NCBI GenBank assembly: GCA_964016885.1 | Contig: OZ024745.1 | Span: 105,090,001 to 105,154,000, forward strand | Reading direction: 5' to 3' | DNA length: 64,000 bases | DNA from: Eledone cirrhosa | Taxonomy: Eukaryota | Shown here: piece after piece, positions 3,814 through 63,734 of the stretch | Numbering within the stretch: the stretch's first letter is position 1 | How the letters are laid out: every line of letters begins with the position of its first letter | Program-made: the position numbers and the translations under genes | Notes under the pieces: generated by a model | Told to the model about the DNA's origin: nothing | What the model saw: the letters and a program-made list of their open reading frames with translations, nothing else | The model's database searches: none

Positions 3814-4085
3814 ATATAGGAAAAAGACATTGAAAATACAATTGGAGTTTTTAAGAAGATTTATTAATAATAACTTTACCAGTTTCATGTTTGGATGATT
3901 TTCAAAAGTTAACTGAGACGGAGAGATGTGTGGCTATGTGGTGATGTTTCTTGCTTAATTACATAGCCACATATTTCTCAATCTCACTTAACTTTTGAAA
4001 ATCATCCAAACGTGAAACTAGTAAAATTATTATTAGTAAATTTTCCTAAAAATTCCAATTGCATTTCAACTTCTTTTTCCTATAT
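3814..4085. repeat. Diverged inverted repeat (about 125-bp arms, 21-nt loop) with minimal HHR motif in each arm
   Basis: Arms 3814-3939 and 3961-4085. Minus-strand arm reads TAACTT-TTGAAAA-tcatccaaacat-GAAAC-TG-GTA-AAGTTA, then AATAAA; TA tracts nearby. Confidence 0.85.
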
Positions 4086-5391
4086 ATATGTATATATATA
4101 TATAATGTTGCTTAACCTCTGTCAGTTCCAATCACAAGTGTTCCAGTAGTTTGAACAATGAAACAGCCCACTCATAAAACTGAAGGAGGGAAAGTGGCCA
4201 AGCTTCACAGAAATATGTCCCGTTAATGAAACTTTTAGAAAGATTCAGCATGTCACAGTGTCTGACAAGGCTGGCTCTTTTTGCTGCCTGAGTGGACCAG
4301 AGCAACATGAAATACAATGCACTGCTATTATATATATATATATATATACACACACATATGCATTTATATATCACCATCGTTGTTTTTATGTCCACTTTTC
4401 CATTCTTGTATGAGTTGGACTGTATGTATGTATGTGTATATATATATATACATATATAATATATATATTTAACAAATAAATAAAAGCTAAGCTTTTCCAG
4501 ATGAAGTGATATTAGACATTATAGTCACAAATCTGAGATAAAAAAAACAAAACAATCCTATTAACAGGGGACCTAAATCATGAATTTATCACTTGATGGA
4601 CAAGTGGGCCTGTTTTACTTTCCTGTGACAAATTCATACTTATAATGTCTATCAAATAGAAAATTTGCATTGGTGTGAGGAGGTAAAAAGAAAATTTATA
4701 AAGAGTTTGTGATGATCATTGAGTAAAGTGGTTAAAGTCAAAGCAAAATGAAATGTTGACATTCAACACATTCCAAACAAAACATTAGACACTGAAGACA
4801 GACTCAATTGAAATAGAAGACAATTACATCATATATTATTGATAATAATAATCTTTTGAGGTTCATTCATGTCTGGATAGAATCAGGTGTATGTATGTAT
4901 ATATATATATATATACATACGTATATATATATACATATGTATATATATATATATATATACATACATATATATACACACATATATATGTACACATACACAC
5001 ATAGACAACAAAATAAATGTTAGTTGCTATTCATTTTCCAAATATATTCTACTTATGTATGAAGAACTTTTTAACAGATGTTTGTACATTAGTATAGAGA
5101 AGTTCTATAATACGATATTACACATTTATACAGAGATGACTTAACTATAGTAAAAAAGCAGTAAATAACATTATGACTGGTAAATAAAAAATACTCTCTG
5201 TGTACTAAATGTATTTTAGATGTTATAGAAATTAGTTATTTCACAGCTTCAGAAGAAAGGTTGAGTGAGTAGGAGGAAAAACATGTTTATGTGTACATCT
5301 CACAAAAAGTACATATGACAAATACAATGTGTGTGTGTGTATATATATATATATTGGAAAATGTGTGAGATCCTTGGTACAGTTAGGTATA

Positions 5392-5756
5392 TTTTAAAAA
5401 AAGGAAAAGAATGACTTCACTTGTAGTGTTAAAAAATTTAATATCATTTTATAATATTATAAGTTGGTAGATCTAATAAGTTCTTTGTTAACTTCGGTGG
5501 GAAGAATTTTAAAGATTCCTGGTTAACTTTGGTTGAAGAACTTTCTCGCATTCGTCTGTGGCGATTGTCAAACAGTTTGACAATCGCCACAGACGAATGC
5601 GAGAAAGTTCTGCAACCAAAGTTAACCAGGAATCTTTAAAATTCTTCCCACTGAAGTTAACAAAGAACTTACTAGATCTACCAACTTATAATATTATAAA
5701 ATTATATCAAATTTTTTAACACTACAAGTGAAGTCATTCTTTTCCTTTTTTTTAAA
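5392..5756. repeat. About 180-bp-arm palindrome (1-nt spacer) with variant HHR motif in each arm
   Basis: Axis at 5574; about 5 mismatches between arms; TTGACAA-TCGC..GCGA-GAAA-GTTCT...AGAAC-TT; right end runs into (TA)n. Confidence 0.9.
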
Positions 5757-6289
5757 TATATATATACATATATTATATATATATTGTATATATATTGTAT
5801 ATATATGAGTGTATGGGTGAGTAAATAGTGTGAGCATAGATAGATGCATATCATACAGACATAACACCATACAACACAAACACATACACACTCCATACAC
5901 AAACATTTTTTCAAAGATGAAGATTCACTGCACCAGTCCTGAATTTCTTAAGTGCAAATCCTTCAGGTGACCCACCACCATTTTTTAAAGGAACACATTA
6001 TCTTTACTTTATGTACTAAGTATTTTTTTTTATAACCATTTACAGATACAAATGTGTGTGTATAAACATGACTAACAATGCACAAAAGAGAAAGTATTGA
6101 ATTCCATGAAGTAGAGTATATATTTAAGTCGGTCAGCTAAAATCAACACTGGCAAGTACTGGCAGTTTCCTCACACAAAACACCATGTAATTCATCAGGC
6201 CATTATTCTGAAATCTATATTTGAAGATTTGTACTTGTCTTTTACATGAGGAAATTCCTTGTAATAACCAGTGTTACTTTCAGCCAAAG

Positions 6290-7942: not shown

Positions 7943-7946
<4 letters not shown>

Positions 7947-8136
7947 TTAATATAGATGAGATTCTACAGGACTAGAACTGTTTCATTCTTTAGAAATCAT
8001 CAGGGATTCCTGATGATTTCTAAAGAATGAAACAGTTCTAGTCCTGTAGAATCTCATCTATATTAAAACTTTTATACTCTGCAATGTATTGAGTACCTTA
8101 CTTACTGTGGTTACCTCCGATTCAACCCGGAATAAC

Positions 8137-8176: not shown

Positions 8177-8389
8177 GAAACCTGTAGTAGCAACAGATTG
8201 AAGCCTCAGTTTTAAATGTATAAATAAACTCAATATATTAGATCTCTATTAGTTTCCTTCAAACTTTGCTTTTTGGTGAGGAATTTAAATATTGAGTAAT
8301 TTTCTTCTCTCATTAGTACACCCAAAAGCAAATACATATTTATATACATATAATACATGTATATAAATATGTATGTGTATATTTATATG

Positions 8390-8970
8390 TATAAATACAT
8401 ATTAGAAAGAAACACATGTATATCTATATATGTATAAATACATATTAGAAAGAAATATATGTATATCTATATATGTATAAATACATATTAGAAAGAAATA
8501 TATGTATATCTATATATATATAAATACATATTAGAAAGAAACACATGTATATCTATATATGTATAAATACATATTAGAAAGAAACACATGTATATCTATA
8601 TATGTATAAATACATATTAGAAAGAAACACATGTATATCTATATATGTATAAATACATATTAGAAAGAAACACATGTATATCTATATATGTATAAATACA
8701 TATTAGAAAAAAATATATGTATATCTATATATATATAAATACATATTAGAAAGAAACACATGTATATCTATATATGTATAAATACATATTAGAAAGAAAT
8801 ATATGTATATCTATATAAATACATATTAGAAAGAAACACATGTATATCTATATATGTATAAATACATATTAGAAAGAAATATATGTATATCTATATATGT
8901 ATAAATACATATTAGAAAGAAACACATGTATATCTATATATGTATAAATACATATTAGAAAGAAATATAT
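8390..8970. repeat. 43-bp AT-rich minisatellite, about 13 copies
   Basis: Unit aaatacatattagaaagaaacacatgtatatctatatatgtat with minor variants. Confidence 0.95.
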
Positions 8971-9118
8971 GAGTGAGTGTGAATATTGTTGTACAATGTA
9001 ATCTTAAGCTAAAATTTAATAAATTTTGAATGAGGTGGAGTAGGAAGGGAGAAAGAGAGGAAAATAAGAGAGGGATAAAGAGAGAAAGGAAGTCAAGCAA
9101 AAATGCACAGTAATAATG

Positions 9119-9701: not shown

Positions 9702-10163
9702 TCATGGCTTCATCTTCACCAGTGGGATATTTTTGGTCGATAGGCATTTGTCGCAGACCCATTCTGCATAGACCTCTGCCCTTAGCAGGTGATAAGCGTC
9801 CTCTGTCAAACCAGTGCAGATGCGATGGAACCAGAAGTTACAGCCGCTCTCACATAGAATGGCCTGGTCACTGTCGTGAACCTCTTTATGACAGGTGCCG
9901 CAAGGGTAGATGGGCGGGGCATTAGGGTTGGCAGGATTAAAGACCATCGACTTGTTTCGCGGGTAGACCTTCTCGGAGGGGCCTGATGGCGGCGGCCCAA
10001 CTGGTTGGGCATGTGCCATCATTTGTTTGTTCGGTATGTTCAGAGATGGTATTGGTTGGTCATCGAACGGATTCTGTGCAAAGATCGTGTTGGTCTTTGC
10101 ACAGCTACCCGGATTGGGCAGCACTGGTGGGGGTGGGATCAACTCGGGTATTGTGGGGCTCGG
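9702..10163 (-). CDS. pygo: Pygopus, terminal coding exon (NPF motif and C-terminal PHD finger)
   Basis: ORF encodes AQNPFDD (Pygo N-terminal homology NPF motif) and PIYPCGTCHKEVHDSDQAILCESGCNFWFHRICTGLTEDAYHLLRAEVYAEWVCDKC (Pygo-type PHD). Polypyrimidine acceptor ttttattttccag|CCG at 10164-10165; 462 nt, phase 0, TGA at 9702. Confidence 0.95.
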   Translation of the reverse strand, partial: PSPTIPELIPPPPVLPNPGSCAKTNTIFAQNPFDDQPIPSLNIPNKQMMAHAQPVGPPPSGPSEKVYPRNKSMVFNPANPNAPPIYPCGTCHKEVHDSDQAILCESGCNFWFHRICTGLTEDAYHLLRAEVYAEWVCDKCLSTKNIPLVKMKP

Positions 10164-11634
10164 CTGGAAAATAAAAGAAAAAAGAAAACATGACATCAAA
10201 AATACACATTCTCATAGACATGTACAAAGATTTGCATAATAAAACGTTAGAAACATGCACAATAGCTTATCTGCAGGAGAAAAACAAATAAAAAATACTT
10301 ATATATTACATAATATCATCATCATCATTTTACGTCCGCTTTTCCCTGCTTGCAAGGGTGGGACGGGAACTGATTCTGGCTTGATTTCTACAGCTGGATG
10401 CCCTTCCTAACACCAACCTCATTTACAGTGAGTGCCGGGTGCTTTTTTGCCGTGACACCTCCACGACCACTTTGCAGTGGAATGATAGAGACCCCAGTCC
10501 TATCATCTCATTTCTATAGCTGAGTAAATATATATATATGTAAATTACACCCTACCGTTATTACAAAAGAAAATGAAGAACACATTAGATAATGTAGTCT
10601 GTCATACACAAGGTTTGAATAAAATGCATGATAAACACAGCTGGAACAGATCAGCTAGATCAGGCCTAACCTGAAGAGGAACAACATTACTCAGCCAACA
10701 AGTGAGCTTCTATGCAGTCACTAAATCTATTGCAATCAGCAGTCTATGATGTCTTTAAACATGACACATGTAAAAAAAAAAAAAATTAGGCAGTTACAGA
10801 TGGAACACCTTTGATCATAGGTCTTCTCATTAGGGCTGGCCAGAGACTAAATTAATTATTCTGCTTTCAAGTACCATGGGTGATGGAACATGCCAGCTAA
10901 TGAAATCAACAAAATGCTAGTTTGAACTGTTGATTTGTATCTGATTAGCTTATTGTACACATGGCGTAGATACTTAGTGAACAAATGTGTAGTACATCTA
11001 TGGAACTTTGACATGCTAGATATAACAGTAAAATTCACTGAAATACACAATACCATCTACAAAAAGAAAGGATACATTAGACATAATAGTCTCTGACATA
11101 CAAAAAAATGACAAGATGGTCTTAAACAACAACTTAATTCTTAGATTTAGTCCTTTAGCCAGTAAATATAATCAATAGAATTATTGACTATGCTTACATA
11201 TAAATTCTAAAATATTTATACTAGCAGGAAAAAACAAATAGTGAATATTTTAAATCATTTTATATAAAGATAAAATAACACCTGTAATATAATTATTGGT
11301 AATCAGAAACAGATCAATCAACAAGTCTCCTATAAATTAGTGGTCATGTGTGCCACTGTAAAAAGCACTGAAGGTTCTTGGCCAATGTTAGGTTGTGAAT
11401 TTAGGTGAGTGTTATCATTGTTAGTTTTAGCTTAGACTTGATCATAACCTGCTTTTTATATAAAATGTAATTACCCCTAGATGTGTGTACATTGCCTTAG
11501 TTGACCAGCTTTATTTGTAGGCTTGCTTCATTTGGATTAACCTTTTAGCATTTACATTACTCTATATATACTATTGTATTTTTGTGGTAGAGGCTTTATC
11601 TTACATAATTATCTCACATAATATATCTTTAACC

Positions 11635-11953
11635 CTTTAGCATTTAAACTGGCCATATTTGGCCAGAATTCTCTCACCTCTTTCTGTTCAAACCGACCAT
11701 TCATACTGATGTTAAGGTATTGTTCACAAAATAAATAACATCAAAATCTCATAGATTCTATATTCATCATCATCATCATCATTTTACGGGAAGAGCGGAC
11801 ATAAAATGATGATGATGATGATGAATATAGAATCTATGAGATTTTGATGTTATTTATTTTGTGAACAATACATTAACATCAGTATGAGTGGCCGGTTTGA
11901 ACAGAAAGAGGTGAGAGAATTCTGGCCAAATATGGCCAGTTTAAATGCTAAAG
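11635..11953. repeat. Fold-back palindrome of a MITE half plus (CAT)n RTE-type tail
   Basis: About 150-bp arms, few mismatches; 14-nt spacer resembling the RTE/SINE 3' end (gggaagagcggac). Confidence 0.9.
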
Positions 11954-18671: not shown

Positions 18672-21600
18672 GAATGTAGGCACCTTGAAAGGTCGATCAA
18701 ATGAGGTTGTAGAGATGCTTGAACGTAAAGAAGTTGATGTTTGTTGTGTTCAAGAGACTAGGTGGAGAGGTGGGTCTGCCAGATTCATCGTGGGTAAAAA
18801 ACGATGCTAAAAACTTTTCTGGGTGAGAAATGACAACGGACTGAGTGGTGTAGGAATTATGTTAGATGAAAAATGGGTAGATAAGGTAATTGACGTAAAT
18901 AGAGTAAATGACAGAATAATTAAAATAAGACTAGTTCTAAATAGAACTACTGTGACAATATCCACTTATGCACCCCAATCTGGACTGCCTGGCGTTATAA
19001 AAGACAGATTCTATGAGTCGCTAATGCTCACTACCTCCCAACTAACCGACAGTGACTACATAATTATTGCTGGCGACCTAAACGGTCACGTTGGACAACA
19101 TAGTGATGGCTATGATGGAATCCATGGAGGCTATGGGTTTGGAAATAGAAATGAGGAGGCTTCAGAATCCTGGAATTCTGTGACGCTAATAACCTAACTA
19201 TCTGTAACACAAACTTCATAAAACGAGAAAACCACTTGATCACCTATAGATCAGGGAAACACGCCAGCCAGATAGATTATATCCTTACTAGAAGACGTGA
19301 CAAAGTGTCTATTGTAAACACTAAATCCCTCCCCCGTGAAGAATGCACCTCCCAACATAGCCTAGTAGTTAGTGACCTCATAGTCAGGAATAGACGTACT
19401 CAACGACAGAGGAGGACTACCACGAGGAGAAGAATATGGAAGTTGAAGGACCCCATAGCCAGTGACAAATTTAAAAGCTTATTACTTGATGCCTTTGACA
19501 ATAAGGAAGAGCAACTAGAGACGTGCAATATAGAGGAACAGTGGGAATTCCTGAAAGTGAACCTGCTGAAAGCAACGGATGAAATCTGTGGCTGGAACAG
19601 ACCTATTGGTAGGAGGAGAGTAACTTGGTGGTGGAACAGTAAGGTGGAGGAGACAATCCAGGCCAAAAAGTAGGCTTGGAAAGTATGGCAGGATGGGGGA
19701 AGTAGAGAACACTATCAAGTGGCCAGGAGAGAAGCTAGGAGACAAGTGTACTTTGAAGCAGAAGATAGAAAGTTCAAGCATGTTCTACAACGTGAGGACC
19801 AAAAATGTGAGGTGTTCAGGATTGCTAGACAATGTGTCAAGGAAAACCGTGATATTGTCGGGGAGAAGTGTGTCCGTAATGGTAATGGTGTACTTGCCCT
19901 CACTGATACTAATAAGAAGATAGCTTGGAAGTGTCACTACGAGAGACTACTAAATGAGGAGAATAAATGGGAAAAAGATAGTCTGCCTCAAATCGATCCA
20001 ATAGAAGGAGCAGCGGTGCAAGTTAAAGGTAGTATAATAAGTAAGGCAATCAAAGATATGAAGACAGACAAGGCAGCTGGGCCTTTGGAGATAGTTGCTG
20101 AGATGTTGAAGGCATCTGGAATGGTGGCACACACTATGGTCACCCGTATAGTTAACCAAGTAATACAGAATGATGTAGCAGCATCATCATTAACTGCTAC
20201 AAGGGTTAAGGGGATGCTCTAGATAGGGGAAACTACAGAGGCATTAAGTTAATTGACCAGGTCATGAAGGTCACAGAAAGAGTTATAGCGCAACTAATCA
20301 GAGCGAATTGATCTAGATGAAATGCAGTTTGGGTTTGTGTCAGGTAAAAGTACCACAGACGCTCTTTTCCTTGTATGACAACTTCATGAGAAGTACCTAG
20401 CTAAAAGTAAACCCTTCTACTTAGCTTTTGTAGACCTGGAGAAAGCCTTTGACAGAGTCCCCCACTCCATTATCTGGTGGGCTCTTAGAAAACTGAGAGC
20501 TATACAAGCCATGTATAAAGAAACAGTCAGTAAGGTTAGAATTAACAATGAATTTTGTGAAGAATTTAGTGTAAAAGTTGGTGTTCATCAAGGCTCTGTC
20601 CTTAGCCCCTTCATATTTATTATTGCCCTTCAAGCTATAACAGAGGAGTTTAAGATCGGCTGCCCATGGGAGCTCCTATACACAGATGATCTAACTCTCA
20701 TAGCTGAATCTATGGCTGAACTAGAGAAGAAAATCAAAACATGGAAGCATGGCCTAGAATCAAAATGCCTTAAAGTTAACTTGTTTGTAGAAAGGAAAAT
20801 GGCCATGCTCAGTGTGTAGGAAAGGAGTAGGCAGAAATTCCATTTTATGTCCCAAATGCAAACTATAGGTACATAAAAGATGTAGTGGGATCACAGGTAA
20901 ACTATCTAAGAATGTGGATTTTATATGTGACCGATGCTCAGATTCAATAAGTAGCAAGTGCCCCCAGGATACTAGCTCCTATTGCCCAGATGGTTCTATA
21001 GAAATAGTGAACACTTTCCGTTACCTGGGTGACAAAATCGGCAGTGGTGGAGGGTGCTCTGAAAGTACAGTAGCCAGAGTCAGAACGGGATGGAAAAAGT
21101 TCAGAGATATTATACCGCTGTTGGTCACAAAAGGTTTCTCTCTAAAAATGAAAGGCAGATTGTATGATGCCCGTATGCAAACAGCAATGCTACATGGCAG
21201 TGAGACATGGGTATTGCGTGCAGAGGACCTGCACAGAATGGAAAGGAATGAGGCATGCATGCTCCTTTGGATGTGTAATAGTAATATACGTGAACGGCAA
21301 ATCATAAATGAACTAAGTGAGAAATTAGGAATAAGAGGGATCAGATGCTGTTTACTTGAGAGAAGACTATGTTGGTATGGTCACGTGATACGCATGAAAG
21401 ACGACAGCTGTATAAAAAAGTGCAGGGCGATTAAAATTGATGGAAGTTACAGAAAAACCTGGGACGATTTGATAAATTCCGACCTTACACACTTGCACCT
21501 CTCTAAGACAATGTCACTGGACCGAGATCTTTGGTGTTACACAGTTATACAGAAGACCCGCCTTGCAAATATACACCCCAATCCACTACCCCTACCCTAT

Positions 21601-21785
21601 CCTCCCACTCCCACTAATACCACCCTCTCTGATATTTTAGTACCTTATTTTCATAGAATTTGAAGTTGGTCAGACACTATATCTACCCAACATATGGTCA
21701 TCTGATCTGACTTATCTCACAGCAGCACAACACATCTAACCAATACTAGTGTCGAAAAATGGACTTTAAATGGTGATGGTGATGT
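18672..21785 (+). mobile_element. RTE-clade LINE, near full-length, degenerate (APE endonuclease + RT)
   Basis: NVGTLKGRS, CVQETRWRG, GDLNGHVG, SQIDYIL (APE); FVDLEKAFD, GVHQGSVLSP, LYTDD (RT); multiple frameshifts and stops; (GAT)-like tail near 21770. Confidence 0.95.
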
Positions 21786-34312: not shown

Positions 34313-34768
34313 AGTCGAGAGCTTATTAAGTTGTGTGTGTTGGACTGTTGTTTCTATTCAATACACGCTTACCACGTTTGACTAGCGGCGAACGAGGTGA
34401 TAAATTTCATCTTACTGTGTGAACGTTGGTACATAGTGTTTGTGGCATTTAATCAGATTCTCTCGCTGATGATGCCCAAGGATTATCTGTTACAAACACA
34501 CTCAGGGCGAAACAGATTAGGGATAATCTGTCCGAGAGATATAATGGTTATTGAGGCGGTTTGTATAATAATATATTTTTATTTTATCATTCTGTCTGCT
34601 TTTTGGTTAAATATTTCAAACAAATGTGGTTTTTCAACCCTTGTAATATTAGACACACGGTTTACTGTGTTTCTTACTGCATATATATTATTATACGGCT
34701 CAGTATTTTATACTTGGAGCTTAATAGTTACAAGGTTTCAATTGGAGTTTTAACTCTAATTTTCATTT
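34313..34768 (+). mobile_element. HHR-bearing non-coding retroelement (Penelope pLTR / retrozyme-like) in a (TA)n tract
   Basis: About 455 bp unique segment with (TA)n on both sides, containing the complete hammerhead; no credible ORF. Confidence 0.65.
34459..34539 (+). ncRNA. Type I hammerhead ribozyme
   Basis: Stem I TCTCTCG/CGAGAGA; core CTGATGA (34466-72); stem II GCCC/GGGC; GAAA (34509-12); stem III ACAGATTA-GGGA-TAATCTGT; GUC triplet, predicted cleavage after 34532. Confidence 0.9.
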
Positions 34769-34778
34769 ATATATATAT

Positions 34779-37443
34779 ATGGAGGAGTCAATTAAGGCCA
34801 AAAAGCAGGCTTGGAAAGCATGGCGGGATGGGGGAAGTAGAGAAGACTATCAGGTAGCCAGGAGGGAAGCTAGGAGACAAGTGTACTTCGCAAGAAGGGA
34901 AGCAGAGGAAAGAAAGTTCAAGCATGTTCTACAACGTGAGGACCAAAAACGTGAGGTGTTCAGGATTGCCAGGCAATGTGTCAAGGAAAACCGTGATATT
35001 GTCGGGGAGAAGTGTGTGCTTAACGATGATGGCATACTTGCCATCACCGACGCTGATAAGAAGGTAGCTTGGAAGTGTCACTACGAAAGGCTTCTAAATG
35101 AGGAGAACAAATGGGAGAAAGACAGTCTCCCCCACATCGACCCAATAGAGGGACCAGCAGTGTTAGTCCAGGGTAGTACAATAAGCAAGGCAATCAAAGA
35201 TATGAAGACGGGTAAGGCGGCTGGTCCTTCGGAAATAGTTGCTGAGATGCTGAAGGCAACTGGTTCGGTGGGACACACCATGGTCACCCAGATAGTTAAC
35301 CAAGTCGTACAGAATGGGGTTGTTCCGAAGGACTGGCGTAGCAGCATCATCGTTAACTGCTATAAGGGAAAAGGAGATGCCCTAGATAGGAGTAACTATA
35401 GAGGCATTAAATTAATCGACCAGGTCATGAAGGTCACGGAAAAAGTAATAGCGCAACTAATCAGAGAGAGAATTGATCTAGATGAAATGCAGTTCGGATT
35501 TGTGTCAGGCAAAAGTACCACAGACGCTCTTTTCATTGTACGACAACTACAGGAGAAGTACCTAGCTAAAAGTAAACCCCTATACTTAGCTTTCGTCGAC
35601 TTGGAGAAAGCCTTCGACAGAGTCCCCCGTTCCATTATCTGGTGGTCTCTTAGAAAACTAGGTGTTGACGAATGGCTTGTGAGAGCTATACAAGCCATGT
35701 ATAAAGAAACAGTCAGTAAGGTTAGAATTAACAACGAATATAGTGAAGAGTTTAGCGTAAAAGTTGGTGTCCATCAGGGCTCTGTTCTTAGCCCCCTACT
35801 ATTTATTATTGCCCTTCAGGCTATAACAGAGGAGTTCAAGACCGGCTGCCCATGGGAACTCCTATACGCAGATGATCTAACGCTCATAGCTGAATCAATG
35901 ACCGAACTAGAGAAGAAATTCCAAACATGGAAGCACGGCCTAGAATCAAAAGGCCTTAAAATTAACCTGGCTAAGACAAAAGTTCTAGTTTGTAGGAAAG
36001 AAAATATGGCGGCAGTCCCATCTGGGAAATGGCCATGCTCAGTGTGTAGGAAAGGCGTAGGTAGAAACTCCATTTTATGTCCCAAATGCAAAGTATGGGT
36101 GCATAAAAGATGTAGTGGGATCACAGGTAAGCTAACTAAGAACATAGATTTTACATGTGGCCGGTGCTCTGGTGCAATAAGTAGCAGCAAGTGCCCACAA
36201 AATACTAGCTCCTTCAACTGCGCAGAGGGTTCTATAGAAATAGTGGACAGCTTCCGTTACCTGGATGACAAAATCAGCAGTGGGGGAGGGTGCTCTGAAA
36301 GTACAGTAGCTAGAGTCAGAACTGGATGGAAAAAGTTCAGAGAGCTTATACCACTATTAGCCGCTAGAGGGTTCTCCCTAAAAATGAAAGGCAGGTTATA
36401 CGATGCCTGCATACGAACAGCAATGCTGCATGGCAGTGAGACCTGGGCATTGTGTGCAGAGGATATACGCAGACTAGAGAGGAACGAAGCTTGCATGCTC
36501 CGCTGGATGTGCAATAGTAATATACGTGAACGGCAAAGCATAAACGAACTAAGGAAAAAATTAGAAATAAGAGGGATCAGATGTTGTTTACTCGAGAGAA
36601 GGCTACGTTGGTACGGTCACGTGATGCGCATGAAAGACGACAGCTGTATAACAAAGTGCAGGGCAATAAAGATAGACGGTAGCCACGGAGTAGGCAGACC
36701 CAGAAAAACATGGGACGAGCTGATAAATTCCGACCTCACACGCTTACACCTCTCCAAGACAATGTCACTGGACCGAGACCTTTGGCGGTACTCAGTAATA
36801 GAGAAGACCCGCCTTACCTAAATACAAAGTAAAAACCTACTACAGTCAGTAGGCATCTCTATCAAAACACCCCCCCCCGTCCCACCACCTCCACCCCATC
36901 CACACCGCCCCTTTCAATGTACAGTTATGTTGGTCCCACAACATCCAGGCCGAAACAAATGAGATCGTGTAGGTGTCACGACAAAAAAAACACACAGTCC
37001 ACGCTGTAAATGTGGCCGTGTAGGCAACACGGTAAAAACCTCCCAGCCCCACACTGTAAATGTGGTTGGTGTTAGGAAGGGCATCCAGCTGTAGAAAACC
37101 CGCCAGACAGTCCACGCTGTAATGTGGCCGTGTAGGCAACACGGTAAAAACCTCCCAGCCCCACACTGTAAATGTGGTTGGTGTTAGGAAGGGCATCCAG
37201 CTGTAGAAAACCCGCCAGACAGTCCACGCTGTAATGTGGCCGTGTAGGCAACACGGTAAAAACCTCCCAGCCCCACACTGTAAATGTGGTTGGTGTTAGG
37301 AAGGGCATCCAACTGTAGAAAACCCGCCAGACAGTCCTATGCGAGCAAGACAACCACTCTTGAATCAAGTGGGAAAACCCCCGTCCAAACCCATGCAAGC
37401 GTGGAACACGGACGCTAAACCTGATGATGATGATGATGATGAT
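34779..37443 (+). mobile_element. RTE-clade LINE, 5'-truncated, with uninterrupted 680-aa RT ORF (34779-36821) and (GAT)n tail
   Basis: Complete RT (FVDLEKAFD, QGSVLSP, YADD), C4HC3 finger, GRPRKTW C-terminus, no APE domain; (GAT)n tail then (TA)n. Confidence 0.95.
36994..37330 (+). repeat. Three tandem 112-bp units in the RTE 3' region
   Basis: acagtcc recurs at 36994, 37107, 37219 and 37331 with near-identical intervening sequence. Confidence 0.9.
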
Positions 37444-55548: not shown

Positions 55549-57597
55549 AAGACTAGCATGGAAGGCTTGGAAAAAGGGTGGGAGTAGGGAAGAATATACA
55601 GCCGCTAAGAGAGAAGCTAGACGTCGGGTGTACTTAGCACGCAGGGAGGTGGAGAGTAGGAGGTTTGCCCATGTTCTGCGACAGGAAGATCAGAGGCGTG
55701 CAGTGTTCCACATTGCAAGGCAGTGAGTGTGTCAATGCAAATCAGGATGTTGTTGGAGATAAATGTGTCCAGGATGATGCCGGTGTACTTAGTGTCACGA
55801 ATGATCAGAAAAAGGAGGCCTGGAAATGTCATTATGAGAGACTGATGAATGTGGAGAACGATTGGGAGATAGAGAAATTACCCTTAGCAGATCCGACATA
55901 GGGACCAGCTATTGAGATTGACGAATATAGGGTCCAAGAGGCGATTAAGGAAATGAAAAATAGTAAGGCTGCTGGACCATCGGGAATAGTTGCTGAGATG
56001 CTGAAGGCATCAGGGGACGTAGGCACTAAACTGGTCATCAATCAGGCTATATATGGTGGTGTCATACCCAAAGACTGGTGCAGCAGTATTCTCATAAATT
56101 GCTACAAAGGTAAAGGGGATGCTCTAGAGAGGAGCAATTATAGGGGTATAAAACTGATGAATCAGGTTATGAAAGTGGCAGAAAGGATATTAGCACAACT
56201 AATTAGAGAAAGGGTCAAACTAGATGAGATGCAGTTTGGTTTTGTGCCTGGGAAGAGTACAACAGATGCCCTCTTCTTGGTGAGACAATTGCAAGAGAGG
56301 TTCTTAGAGAAAAATAAGCCACTATACTTAGCCTTTGTTGACCTAGAGAAGGCCTTTGATAGGGTACCCCGATCTGTCATCTGGTGGTCCCTAAGGAAGC
56401 TAGGTGTTGAGGAATGGCTTGTGAGGACAGTGCAAACTTTGTACAGAGGTACTCTCAGTAAAGTCAGGGTAGGAATGGAGTTTAGTGAGGAATTCCAGAT
56501 ACAAGTAGGAGTACATCAAGGTTCGGTCCTCAGCCCGCTCTTGTTCATTATAGTCCTCCAACCATAACAGAGGAGTTTATGACTGGCTGTCCATGGGAAC
56601 TTCTCTATGCGGACGATCTGGTTCTTACAGCAGAATCAGTAGAGGAGCTAGAGAATAAATTCTGGCTATGGAAACAGCAGTTGGAAGCAAGAGGACTGAG
56701 AGTGAACCTAGCTAAGACAAAAGTGTTGATGAGTAGAAAAGAGGACAAAACTCTGATTCTGTCAGGGAAATGGCCATGTTCGATATGCAGAAAAAGAACT
56801 GGCATAAATTCTATAAAATGCACACAATGCAGATCCTGGGTACACAAGAGATGTAGCGGGATAGCAGGCAAACTCACAGGTAGGGAGAAATATGTATGCA
56901 GTAGACGTACAGGGAAATTAGACAGTAGAAGTCGCATTGATAGACACATTTTTCAAATGCAGGAGGGCACTATAGAAGTGGTTGATAGCTTCCGGTACCT
57001 AGGAGATCAGATTACATGGGATGGCGTGTTCCGAGGCCATAGTATCTAGAATAAGGACGGGTTGGAAGAAATTTAGGGAGCTGCTTCCCCTGCTGACGAA
57101 GGGTTTCTCCCTGTGTACGAAAGGCCGGTTGTATGATGCCTGTGTGAGGAGCGTGATGCTGCATGGTAGTGAGACATGGGCAGCAACTGCAGAGGATATG
57201 CGACGGTTGGAGAGAAATGAGGCAAGCATGCTCCGTTGGATGTGCAGTGTAAATGTGCGTGAACGACCCAGCATGAATGTGTTGAGAGAGAAACTGTGTC
57301 TGAGAGGGATAGAATGTAGTGTTCGGGAGAGGAGACTGAGGTGGTATGGACATGTGATGCGCATGGAGTATGACTGATGGGTGAAGAAGTGCCAGGAAAT
57401 ACCAGTTGAAAGAAGACGTGATAGAGGTAGACCACGAAAAACATGGGCGGAGGTGGTGCGAACAGACCTCAGATCGTTGAAGCTCACGGTGGAGATGACG
57501 AAGGACCGTGACGAGTGGAGAGATGCTGTGCTGAATAAGACCCATCCCACCCTTGCAAGCAGGGAAAGCGGACGTAAAATGATGATGATGATGATGA
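55549..57597 (+). mobile_element. RTE LINE, 5'-truncated, second subfamily
   Basis: RT motifs over several frames, C4HC3-like finger, tail cccacccttgcaagcagggaaagcggacgtaaaat(gat)n; TA tracts at both ends. Confidence 0.95.
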
Positions 57598-62668: not shown

Positions 62669-63135
62669 GCCATGTGACAGAAGTCTGTGCGAGCCTTGAT
62701 TGCAAAGTACCATTTTCCATTTGTTTTACAAAGTGAAAATCATATTTTATAATCAATGATCACCGTAGTCTGAACAAACTTAGTGCTGCCGCCCTACCCA
62801 CACACTTTCTATTCGTTTATTCCAAAATCCCACTTATTGTTTATGTCCTTATGGATAAACGAATACACTGGAACTGTAATAATAATTGTTTCTACTTTAG
62901 GCACAAGGCCAGCAATTATCCAGTGCATTACTGGTACTTTATTTTATCGACCCCGTAAGGATGAAAGGCAAAGTCAACCTCGGCGGGATTTGAACTCAGA
63001 TCGTAAAGGGACGTAACTATACTGGAACTGTAATAATAATATAATCGAAACAAACGGTAATAACCACACGTAACAGAACAACAATCTTTTAAGAACCAAC
63101 AATCCAACACTCGAACTCGAACTGTTAACTTGAAC

Positions 63136-63378
63136 TCCAACTTCGACTACCAACACACGACCTGTGGAACTAGTACCAACTTTGACTATCAACACACGAA
63201 CTGTGGAACTAGTACCAACTTCGACTACCAACACACGAACTCTGTAACTAGTACCAACTTCGACTATCAACAGACGAACTGTGGAACTAGTACCAACTTT
63301 GACTATCAACACACGAACTCTGGAACTAGTACCAACTTTGACTATCAACACACGAACTGTGAAACTAGTACCAACTTT
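63136..63378. repeat. 39-bp minisatellite, about 6 copies
   Basis: Unit accaacttcgactatcaacacacgaactgtggaactagt. Confidence 0.95.
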
Positions 63379-63734
63379 CCCACTTACTCAGACTGCAACT
63401 ATTTATATGTAGTGGTCCAGCCCATTCTCACCAGGGGGGGGGGGGGGGGGGGGGCGTCGTACTCTTGCACAACATTGATACCATGAACAAGTAGTCAATG
63501 TATGATAAAATGTTTAATGAATCCTGGCTAACAGATCCATATTTTTTAAAAATTGGATGAGAAAAGAAAAAGAAACAGCAATAAAGCTTTTCTTTTTTTT
63601 TTATTGCTTAAACAAAAAGGTAGTTAGTATTCATGGCCGTTTCCGAAGCTTCCGCGAATGAGATGAGAGAGAACTAGTTCAAAATGCTTGCATCTGGGTG
63701 AAATTTACTAAAAACACGCTATGAGCCATGGTAG

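Follow-up and report, generated by a model that had tools for sequence, protein, structure and literature searches.

A candidate U3:A8 hammerhead motif at the axis of a palindromic, probably Penelope-like repeat end in the octopod Eledone cirrhosa

Introduction

Hammerheads with a U3-A8 core pair occur in several natural examples that are active in vitro (Perreault et al. 2011, PMC3088659), and about 1,300 minimal motifs with this pair are reported by way of the Cercyon Penelope-like elements (PLEs) of Schistosoma mansoni (Cervera and de la Pena 2014, PMC4209133). Animal PLE hammerheads are mostly minimal and dimer-dependent (PMC4209133; PMC6765202), and PLE hammerheads are often poor cleavers (PMC4209133). 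Cleavage of the anole PLE hammerhead depended on protein, and insertion in vitro could do without the ribozyme; in the available part of that report, no RNA-seq reads start or stop at its site (PMC11167929).

PLE insertions are characterized by a 5'-truncated copy in inverted orientation, by (TA)n targets and by a tail of 30-40 bp at one of the ends (PMC8557442). Their head-to-head palindromic junctions have been attributed to self-priming (PMC3846280), and the tail has been traced to two RT start sites (PMC11167929). Head-to-head pLTR insertions are described for Adineta Penelope (PMC3846280), Naiad and others (PMC8557442) and anole Poseidon (PMC11167929).

Architecture of the palindrome

The window analysed here (64,000 nt of Eledone cirrhosa contig OZ024745.1, positions 105,090,001 to 105,154,000) contains a palindrome for which an earlier note, made from the sequence alone, had given arms of 180 bp. 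The arms measure 186 bp each, with a 1-nt spacer and 6 mismatches (Table 1), and no third copy of the arm was detected within the window by blastn. The palindrome lies 3.9 kb beyond the stop codon of pygopus, whose last coding exon (PHD finger; window positions 9702-10211, minus strand) is 98% identical to that of Octopus bimaculoides. The arms have diverged by 3.2%, which translates very roughly into 4.5 million years under the rate that PMC13282606 implies. The locus is likely an ordinary dead insertion of a truncated copy.

The locus resembles the head-to-head pLTR insertions cited above, with which it shares an inverted 5'-truncated copy, a palindromic junction, a tail of 30-40 nt at one end (33 nt here) and an AT-rich target (PMC3846280, PMC8557442, PMC11167929). 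Unlike those insertions, as described in the same sources, the octopus locus comprises only the last 190-220 nt of the element, and its junction falls inside ribozyme stem I.

Table 1. Features of the palindrome and of the predicted hammerhead motif (window coordinates)
Feature	Positions	Strand	Remarks
(TA)n microsatellite, left insertion target	5340..5354	.	Read from sequence
33-nt extension (tail), left copy only	5355..5387	-	Missing from right arm
Left arm: inverted 5'-truncated copy of element 3' end, second hammerhead motif inside	5388..5573	-	
Palindrome axis, 1-nt spacer inside stem I 5' strand	5574..5574	.	
Stem I 5' strand remnant AGU	5574..5576	+	Intact copies carry AGAUC ahead of AGU
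Right arm: direct 5'-truncated copy of element 3' end, without tail	5575..5760	+	
Core box UUGACAA (U3 ... A8 A9)	5577..5583	+	Read from sequence; free of majority substitutions in the variant rows listed (40 of 270)
Stem II, 4 bp, U-A at base, 11-nt loop, loop position 5591 variable	5584..5602	+	
Core box GAAA (G12 A13 A14 A15.1)	5603..5606	+	Read from sequence
Extended stem III: outer helix of 6 bp, internal loop (variable), second helix GUUAAC/GUUAAC of 6 bp, end region of 29 nt (variable)	5606..5669	+	
U17, predicted cleavage site; CUU triplet, putatively cut on its 3' side	5670..5670	+	From hammerhead numbering
Stem I 3' strand: ACU, bulged A5674, GAUCU	5671..5679	+	Pairs with upstream letters of intact copies
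AT-rich linker, differs between copies and species	5680..5720	+	Loose ends at 5680-5681 and 5424-5427
Conserved 3'-terminal block, most abundant part of the family	5721..5755	+	Depth peak, mirror bins 5369-5450
Degenerate (TA)n, right insertion target	5755..5812	.	Read from sequence

The hammerhead motif in the window

The right arm carries the core of a type I hammerhead in full (U4 G5 A6 N7, A9, G12 A13 A14, A15.1-U16.1 and H17). The Watson-Crick pair between positions 3 and 8 is present as U3-A8, and the strict CUGANGA consensus is absent. The earlier note had placed TTGACAA, stem II, GAAA, stem III, the CTT ending at 5670 and a 3-bp stem I (AGT 5574-5576/ACT 5671-5673) cut by the axis, and all of them lie where it put them. 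Stem II is formed by 5584-5587/5599-5602. The outer helix of stem III (5606-5611/5664-5669) encloses 52 nt, including GTTAAC at 5621-5626 and 5656-5661; each GTTAAC is self-complementary, and the distal helix could therefore pair within one RNA or between two. The very short palindromic helix III of the metazoan PLE dimer type is replaced here by a stem III domain of 64 nt. At the level of the family, the core is surrounded by three stems with the open end at stem I, whose 3+5 bp are taken from intact copies. At the window locus, stem I is incomplete, with 3 bp on the plus strand and 2 bp on the minus strand, where the motif of the left arm has its core at 5571-5565 and a predicted cut after 5478.

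The expectation that standard searches would miss this motif was borne out. The CUGANGA descriptor gave no matches, and Rfam returned no hammerhead in register: RAGATH-1-hammerhead matched out of register at 19.5 bits (E 0.24; gathering score 56.3), and the other matches were to generic miRNA-hairpin models only, under their gathering scores. A descriptor written after the motif had been seen, at the observed strictness, matched none of 100 dinucleotide shuffles of the window, and a looser form (G-U allowed, 4-bp stem III, any Watson-Crick 3:8 pair) matched eight. In the window alone the motif is suggestive but not proof, and the case against chance comes mainly from other copies.

Copies in four octopod runs

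Contigs from four of 23 listed runs (X1, X4, X6 and X8), one per species label (A to D), were mapped on positions 5000-6200 at 80% likeness, with 5320-5361 skipped as repeat. X1 may be what the assembly was built from; species B to D are taken to be related octopods. The matched contigs (2,973, 1,327, 925 and 151 in the four runs) lie nearly all on the palindrome. The earlier proposal that the motif represents a family, with U3:A8 in a core of hammerhead type, is supported: it is part of a multi-copy repeat in all four runs. Summed depth in X1, which is not a copy number, is ~20,000 over two core bins, 163,000 at the 3' end and 10.8 on the single-copy flank, from which we infer, roughly, thousands of copies. 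The roughly tenfold rise in depth toward the 3' end is in line with 5' truncation, and the depth profile and contig counts of the four runs indicate a dispersed, 5'-truncated repeat. Many indels occur in the AT-rich linker, at mirror positions 5435-5466.

Copies terminate on (TA)n at 5388-5393 in 36 and 31 contigs of X1 and in 29 of X4. High-copy contig pieces reach 5362-5366, within the 33-nt tail region, in all four runs, and copies occur both with and without the tail. The left flank is without contig cover in X1 and is uninformative there. The palindromic form recurs: of the 16 listed pieces from X1 and X4, 5 cross the axis with 9-19 differences and thus stem from other loci, whose junction lies close to this position. 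At least six further joints tie an inverted piece to 5573-5577 (three in X1, two in X6 and one in X8; the listing covers 15 of the 60 and 12 of the 15 joint rows). Joints at 5494-5618, 5530-5646/5649 and in the AT-rich 5685-5720 zone were left out of this count because the element is self-similar there. The joints listed, which are a biased selection, suggest that the 5' strand of stem I may be a hotspot of truncation and inversion. At the window locus, both arms share letters unlike the family majority (5591, 5618 and 5705), which fits one template.

Recovery of stem I from non-palindromic copies

Contigs that cover 5573/5574 and then run into other DNA number 37, 66, 28 and 11 in the four runs, and in most copies over 5573 the upstream DNA is not palindromic and supplies the rest of stem I. 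Among the loose ends listed (24 of 544 rows), the consensus in X1, X4 and X8 terminates in CCTGAGAT, followed by C5573 and AGT, with an agreement of 0.62-0.72. The recovered stem I consists of AGU/ACU, the bulged A5674 and AGAUC/GAUCU, its 3' strand being 5671-5679. The earlier note had proposed that non-palindromic copies would restore a stem I of TCTAGT/ACTAGA. Such copies were found and their stem I is complete, but the predicted 5' letters were not recovered as the main strand, which reads GAGATC-AGT in three of the four runs; the consensus of the fourth terminates in GAGACT-AGT.

The duplex of the recovered upstream letters with 5671-5682 has an energy of -6.6 kcal/mol, versus -1.2 for the window's own upstream sequence, and is matched by 84 of 4,096 hexamers. 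Alternative 5' strands keep the pairing: three other forms (the X6 consensus, an X1 variant of three contigs and one X8 contig) give -6.2 to -6.6, with the bulge shifted in two of them.

Conservation across copies and species

Majority substitutions, folded onto one arm, were taken from the 40 of 270 variant rows listed. These rows appear to hold majority changes, since all 20 with computed shares reach at least 50% in at least one run; position 5476, where the majority is the right-arm letter, was left out. Within 5574-5679, 13 positions in these rows differ from the right arm. None of them falls on the 54 core and stem positions (hypergeometric 4e-5), and 12 lie in unpaired parts of stem III; among circular shifts preserving the clustering, 3 of 106 gave equally few core and stem substitutions. 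The set of 54 positions was chosen after the variants had been seen and omits GAAT/ATTC, a pairing that the earlier note had proposed within stem III. Both tetramers are present in the window (5630-5633 and 5641-5644), but their pairing is not conserved, because 5642 is A in most of the depth of X4, X6 and X8; with this pairing included, 1 of the 13 substitutions falls in the structure.

Stems II and III are unchanged in the 40 of 270 rows listed, and no compensatory changes in them were found there. In species C and D, 13 listed pieces lie over the motif, of which 10 run at least 13 letters past the match (pieces 23, 24 and 28, where the contig itself stops, were left out), and in 8 of these 10 the similarity stops at 5678-5685, the end of stem I. 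Conservation, as read from these sequences, follows the hammerhead outline.

Folding and predicted activity

The folding energy of the stretch is no better than that of shuffles (z -0.09). The stem III helices have pair probabilities of 0.93-0.96 and about 0.8, and a stem III that is stable alone would make a dimer partner unnecessary. Stem II is weak in the window sequence (0.13-0.17) and competes with a hairpin in which the core is buried; the window's own stem I of 3 bp does not form (0.01). A read-through RNA over both arms would fold as one 186-bp hairpin (-277 kcal/mol, versus -5.4 for the hammerhead fold). Since stem I is limited to 3 bp (2 bp on the minus strand) and read-through RNA would form a single hairpin, the ribozyme is predicted to be inactive at the window locus.

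The motif has U-A at 10.1-11.1 and CUU as its cleavage triplet. Hammerheads with U-A rather than G-C at 10.1-11.1, or with CUU rather than an RUH triplet, are slower. Sites of the form cUH with a GAAAg box occur naturally (available part of PMC7936874).

Relationship to known hammerheads and PLEs

The natural U3-A8 hammerheads of PMC3088659 have the same compensated core pair as the octopus motif; those in the available text are several examples, whereas the octopus motif belongs to a high-copy, probable retroelement family of an animal. A close counterpart is Cercyon, which, as far as the available part of PMC4209133 describes it, likewise combines a type I fold and a UUGANAA core with a position in PLE end repeats, and which also occurs mostly as single truncated copies, with opposite-strand pairs 100-700 bp apart. 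One listed Cercyon example shares the U-A at the base of stem II. In contrast, Cercyon hammerheads all but lack a helix III and presumably depend on dimers, while the octopus motif combines a bulged stem I of 8 bp with its stem III domain of 64 nt, which contains two 6-bp helices. The PLE hammerheads of fungi and protists share with it a type I fold and a stable helix III, and one is active as a monomer; those PLEs are telomeric and endonuclease-less and U3-A8 is not mentioned for them in the available text, whereas the octopus repeat is dispersed in an animal genome (PMC4209133).

As U3-A8 is published for a PLE hammerhead family (PMC4209133, available part), the octopus motif is a variant within a known association and not a new ribozyme class. 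What appears to be new is the combination of the known U3-A8 pair with a long, stable stem III in what is likely an animal PLE. No report of this combination in an animal PLE, and no prior description of the repeat family, was found in the literature searched; Repbase or Dfam may already hold the family.

Hydra-clade PLE hammerheads (Craig et al. 2021, PMC8557442, File S2) share with the octopus motif a location 100-200 nt from the 3' end, (TA)n targets and an occurrence in octopus; the motif in the window starts about 185-220 nt from the end. The core and stem II start of Hydra-2_aJap agree with the octopus motif in 12 of 14 letters, the two exceptions being positions 3 and 8 (compared by eye). 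All listed Hydra cores are C3:G8 with stems III of 3-4 bp, unlike the U3:A8 core and long stem III described here, and Hydra-1_Obim of Octopus bimaculoides is canonical, minimal and unrelated in sequence (PMC8557442, available part). Five motifs of the repeat were not found in the available supplement of PMC8557442, in which line breaks could mask a match. The Hydra-2_aJap match and the (TA)n target hint at the Hydra clade, although preference for (TA)n is common to the Hydra, Neptune and Naiad clades and has no power to separate them (PMC8557442, available part). Hydra-like is the best guess, with Neptune as an alternative; assignment to Naiad was rejected, the 3' end of Naiad_Obim in the available supplement of PMC8557442 being unlike the arm.

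Neither an RT nor a GIY-YIG frame was found among 59 stop-to-stop ORFs of at least 55 aa within 1-16 kb (low-complexity frames excluded), and the sole Pfam match among them is the pygopus exon. A coding reading of the arm (an ATG in stem II and 40 codons, as in the anole element) was rejected: majority changes fall on codon positions 1, 2 and 3 in the numbers 6, 4 and 2, one of them creates a stop in most of the X4 depth, 1-nt indels are present, and no protein homologue of the frame was found.

Outside octopods, the 3'-end motif gave no matches in viral contigs and none in GTDB contigs. Matches to the core and stem II pattern (4 metagenome and 9 viral) were taken as chance because they come without a matching stem III and stem I or arm-long similarity. 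Two related AT-rich metagenome contigs (L002:4361-4391 and L003:242-272) both carry a core-like TTGAGAA and a short stem II; neither a stem III nor a stem I could be made out convincingly in them.

Interpretation and alternative explanations

The abundant octopus repeat end is probably the 3' end of a PLE. Its intact copies would carry a type I hammerhead with U3:A8, an 8-bp stem I containing a bulge, and a long stem III; such a hammerhead would be able to cut itself as a monomer after U5670. An unlikely alternative within the same type of element is that the fold has been kept as a protein-binding or RT-start structure that does not cleave, or cleaves only with the element's protein. The CUU triplet, the U-A at the base of stem II and the weakness of stem II are in line with it, as is the anole PLE hammerhead, protein-dependent, dispensable in vitro and without RNA-seq ends (PMC11167929, available part). 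Against this, the rows listed contain no majority change at an unpaired core position in any of the four species, and positions 3 and 8 depart from the consensus together, with their pairing preserved, as would be expected under selection on the active site. A good deal less probable is a non-autonomous tandem retrozyme, whose circular RNA would be cut by the hammerhead and of which the palindrome would be a side product. Animal type I hammerheads are often found in non-LTR retrozymes proposed to derive from PLEs (10.64898/2026.07.22.740005, available part), and the arm is non-coding with no reading frame linked to it; but the joint rows listed (15 of 60 and 12 of 15) include no head-to-tail joint, the window locus has none, depth climbs about tenfold toward the 3' end, and copies finish on (TA)n with an optional tail.

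Two further explanations concern the palindrome more than the motif. Retrotransposition could have had no part in the palindrome, if fold-back repair or DNA template switching converted a single older copy at a later time. The exactly symmetric axis with its 1-nt spacer and the non-majority letters common to both arms would allow this. The explanation is very improbable given that the same form is seen elsewhere (the axis-spanning pieces of X1 and X4 and the further inverted joints at 5573-5577), that (TA)n stands at both ends and that the form is typical of PLE insertions (PMC3846280, available part). Slightly less credible still is a chance resemblance to a hammerhead within a foldback DNA transposon, a MITE or an assembly artefact. 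A folding energy no better than that of shuffles, the 8 of 100 shuffles that match the loose descriptor and the lack, among the matches listed, of a contig that fits the locus across the axis or the left flank all speak for it. It is largely refuted by the contig copies: most of those covering 5573 continue upstream non-palindromically and complete stem I, conservation tracks the hammerhead outline, and the arms differ at 6 sites with a tail on one of them.

Proposed origin and significance

If the repeat end is that of a PLE with an active hammerhead, the element's RT and GIY-YIG nuclease would nick a TA microsatellite and copy the RNA from its 3' end. Copying would halt within stem I, in its 5' strand, after which the product would either prime itself or be joined by a second copy made off the same template, giving two head-to-head copies. 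The second arm would join the target at its ATATA, which would explain why it has no tail. Arm divergence would place this insertion roughly 4-5 million years ago. In the intact element, the RNA would probably fold as a type I hammerhead, cut after U5670 as a monomer and so trim precursor RNA at the element end.

A wider reading, tentative and rather doubtful as a whole, is that thousands of copies in several octopod species represent an undescribed PLE family with a monomer-active hammerhead (U3:A8, bulged stem I and long stem III), which is invisible to CUGANGA and Rfam searches and whose 5' edge is a preferred point of truncation or fold-back. If true, it would tie a ribozyme fold directly to the origin of the inverted ends of PLEs; the axis just before the CUGAUGA core of the neighbouring palindrome at 7943-8070 would be a parallel case for such a fold-back point. 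The usual animal PLE hammerheads are minimal, slow and in need of dimers or protein, which has put their purpose for PLEs in question. A high-copy animal family with a stable stem III would offer a clean test of a PLE hammerhead working alone, and of why U3:A8 is kept. Descriptor and Rfam searches would also undercount PLE ribozymes, which touches claims that some PLE groups lack them. The window locus itself may at most add double-stranded RNA to pygopus read-through transcripts.

Other palindromes and repeats in the window

Three hammerhead-bearing palindromes lie 1.6-5.9 kb downstream of pygopus and could form double-stranded RNA if transcribed. One of the other two, at 7943-8070, has perfect 62-bp arms and a 4-nt spacer, with (TA)n on its left and ~67 nt extra before (TA)n on its right. 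It is unrelated to the palindrome at 5388-5760 and has a canonical CTGATGA core from 8010, just beyond the axis. The stem II of this motif measures 3 bp and is closed by U.U, a closure shared with Hydra-clade hammerheads; Rfam Hammerhead_3 matched it at 14.4 bits (E 1.3). It probably represents another PLE family, also cut inside stem I. The other, at 3834-4066, is an older palindrome beside (TA)n with arms about 83% alike. It bears a second U3:A8 minimal-hammerhead-like motif (core at 3995 on the plus strand and 3905 on the minus strand), the minus copy of which has a 6-bp stem I and the plus copy a palindromic ACTAGT stem III; stem II is decayed.

A further palindrome at 11635-11953 has 152-bp arms and a 15-nt spacer, and no hammerhead core was found in it. 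Its arms lie in a repeat with several copies in the window, and we take it to resemble a MITE with long terminal inverted repeats. Tandem arrays occupy 8244-9097 (43-nt unit), 63098-63409 (39-nt unit) and 37009-37344 (112-nt unit). Broken copies of non-LTR retrotransposons with RT-like frames, presumably RTE-like and unrelated to the hammerhead, are located at 18811-21663, 34728-36821 and 55902-57377.
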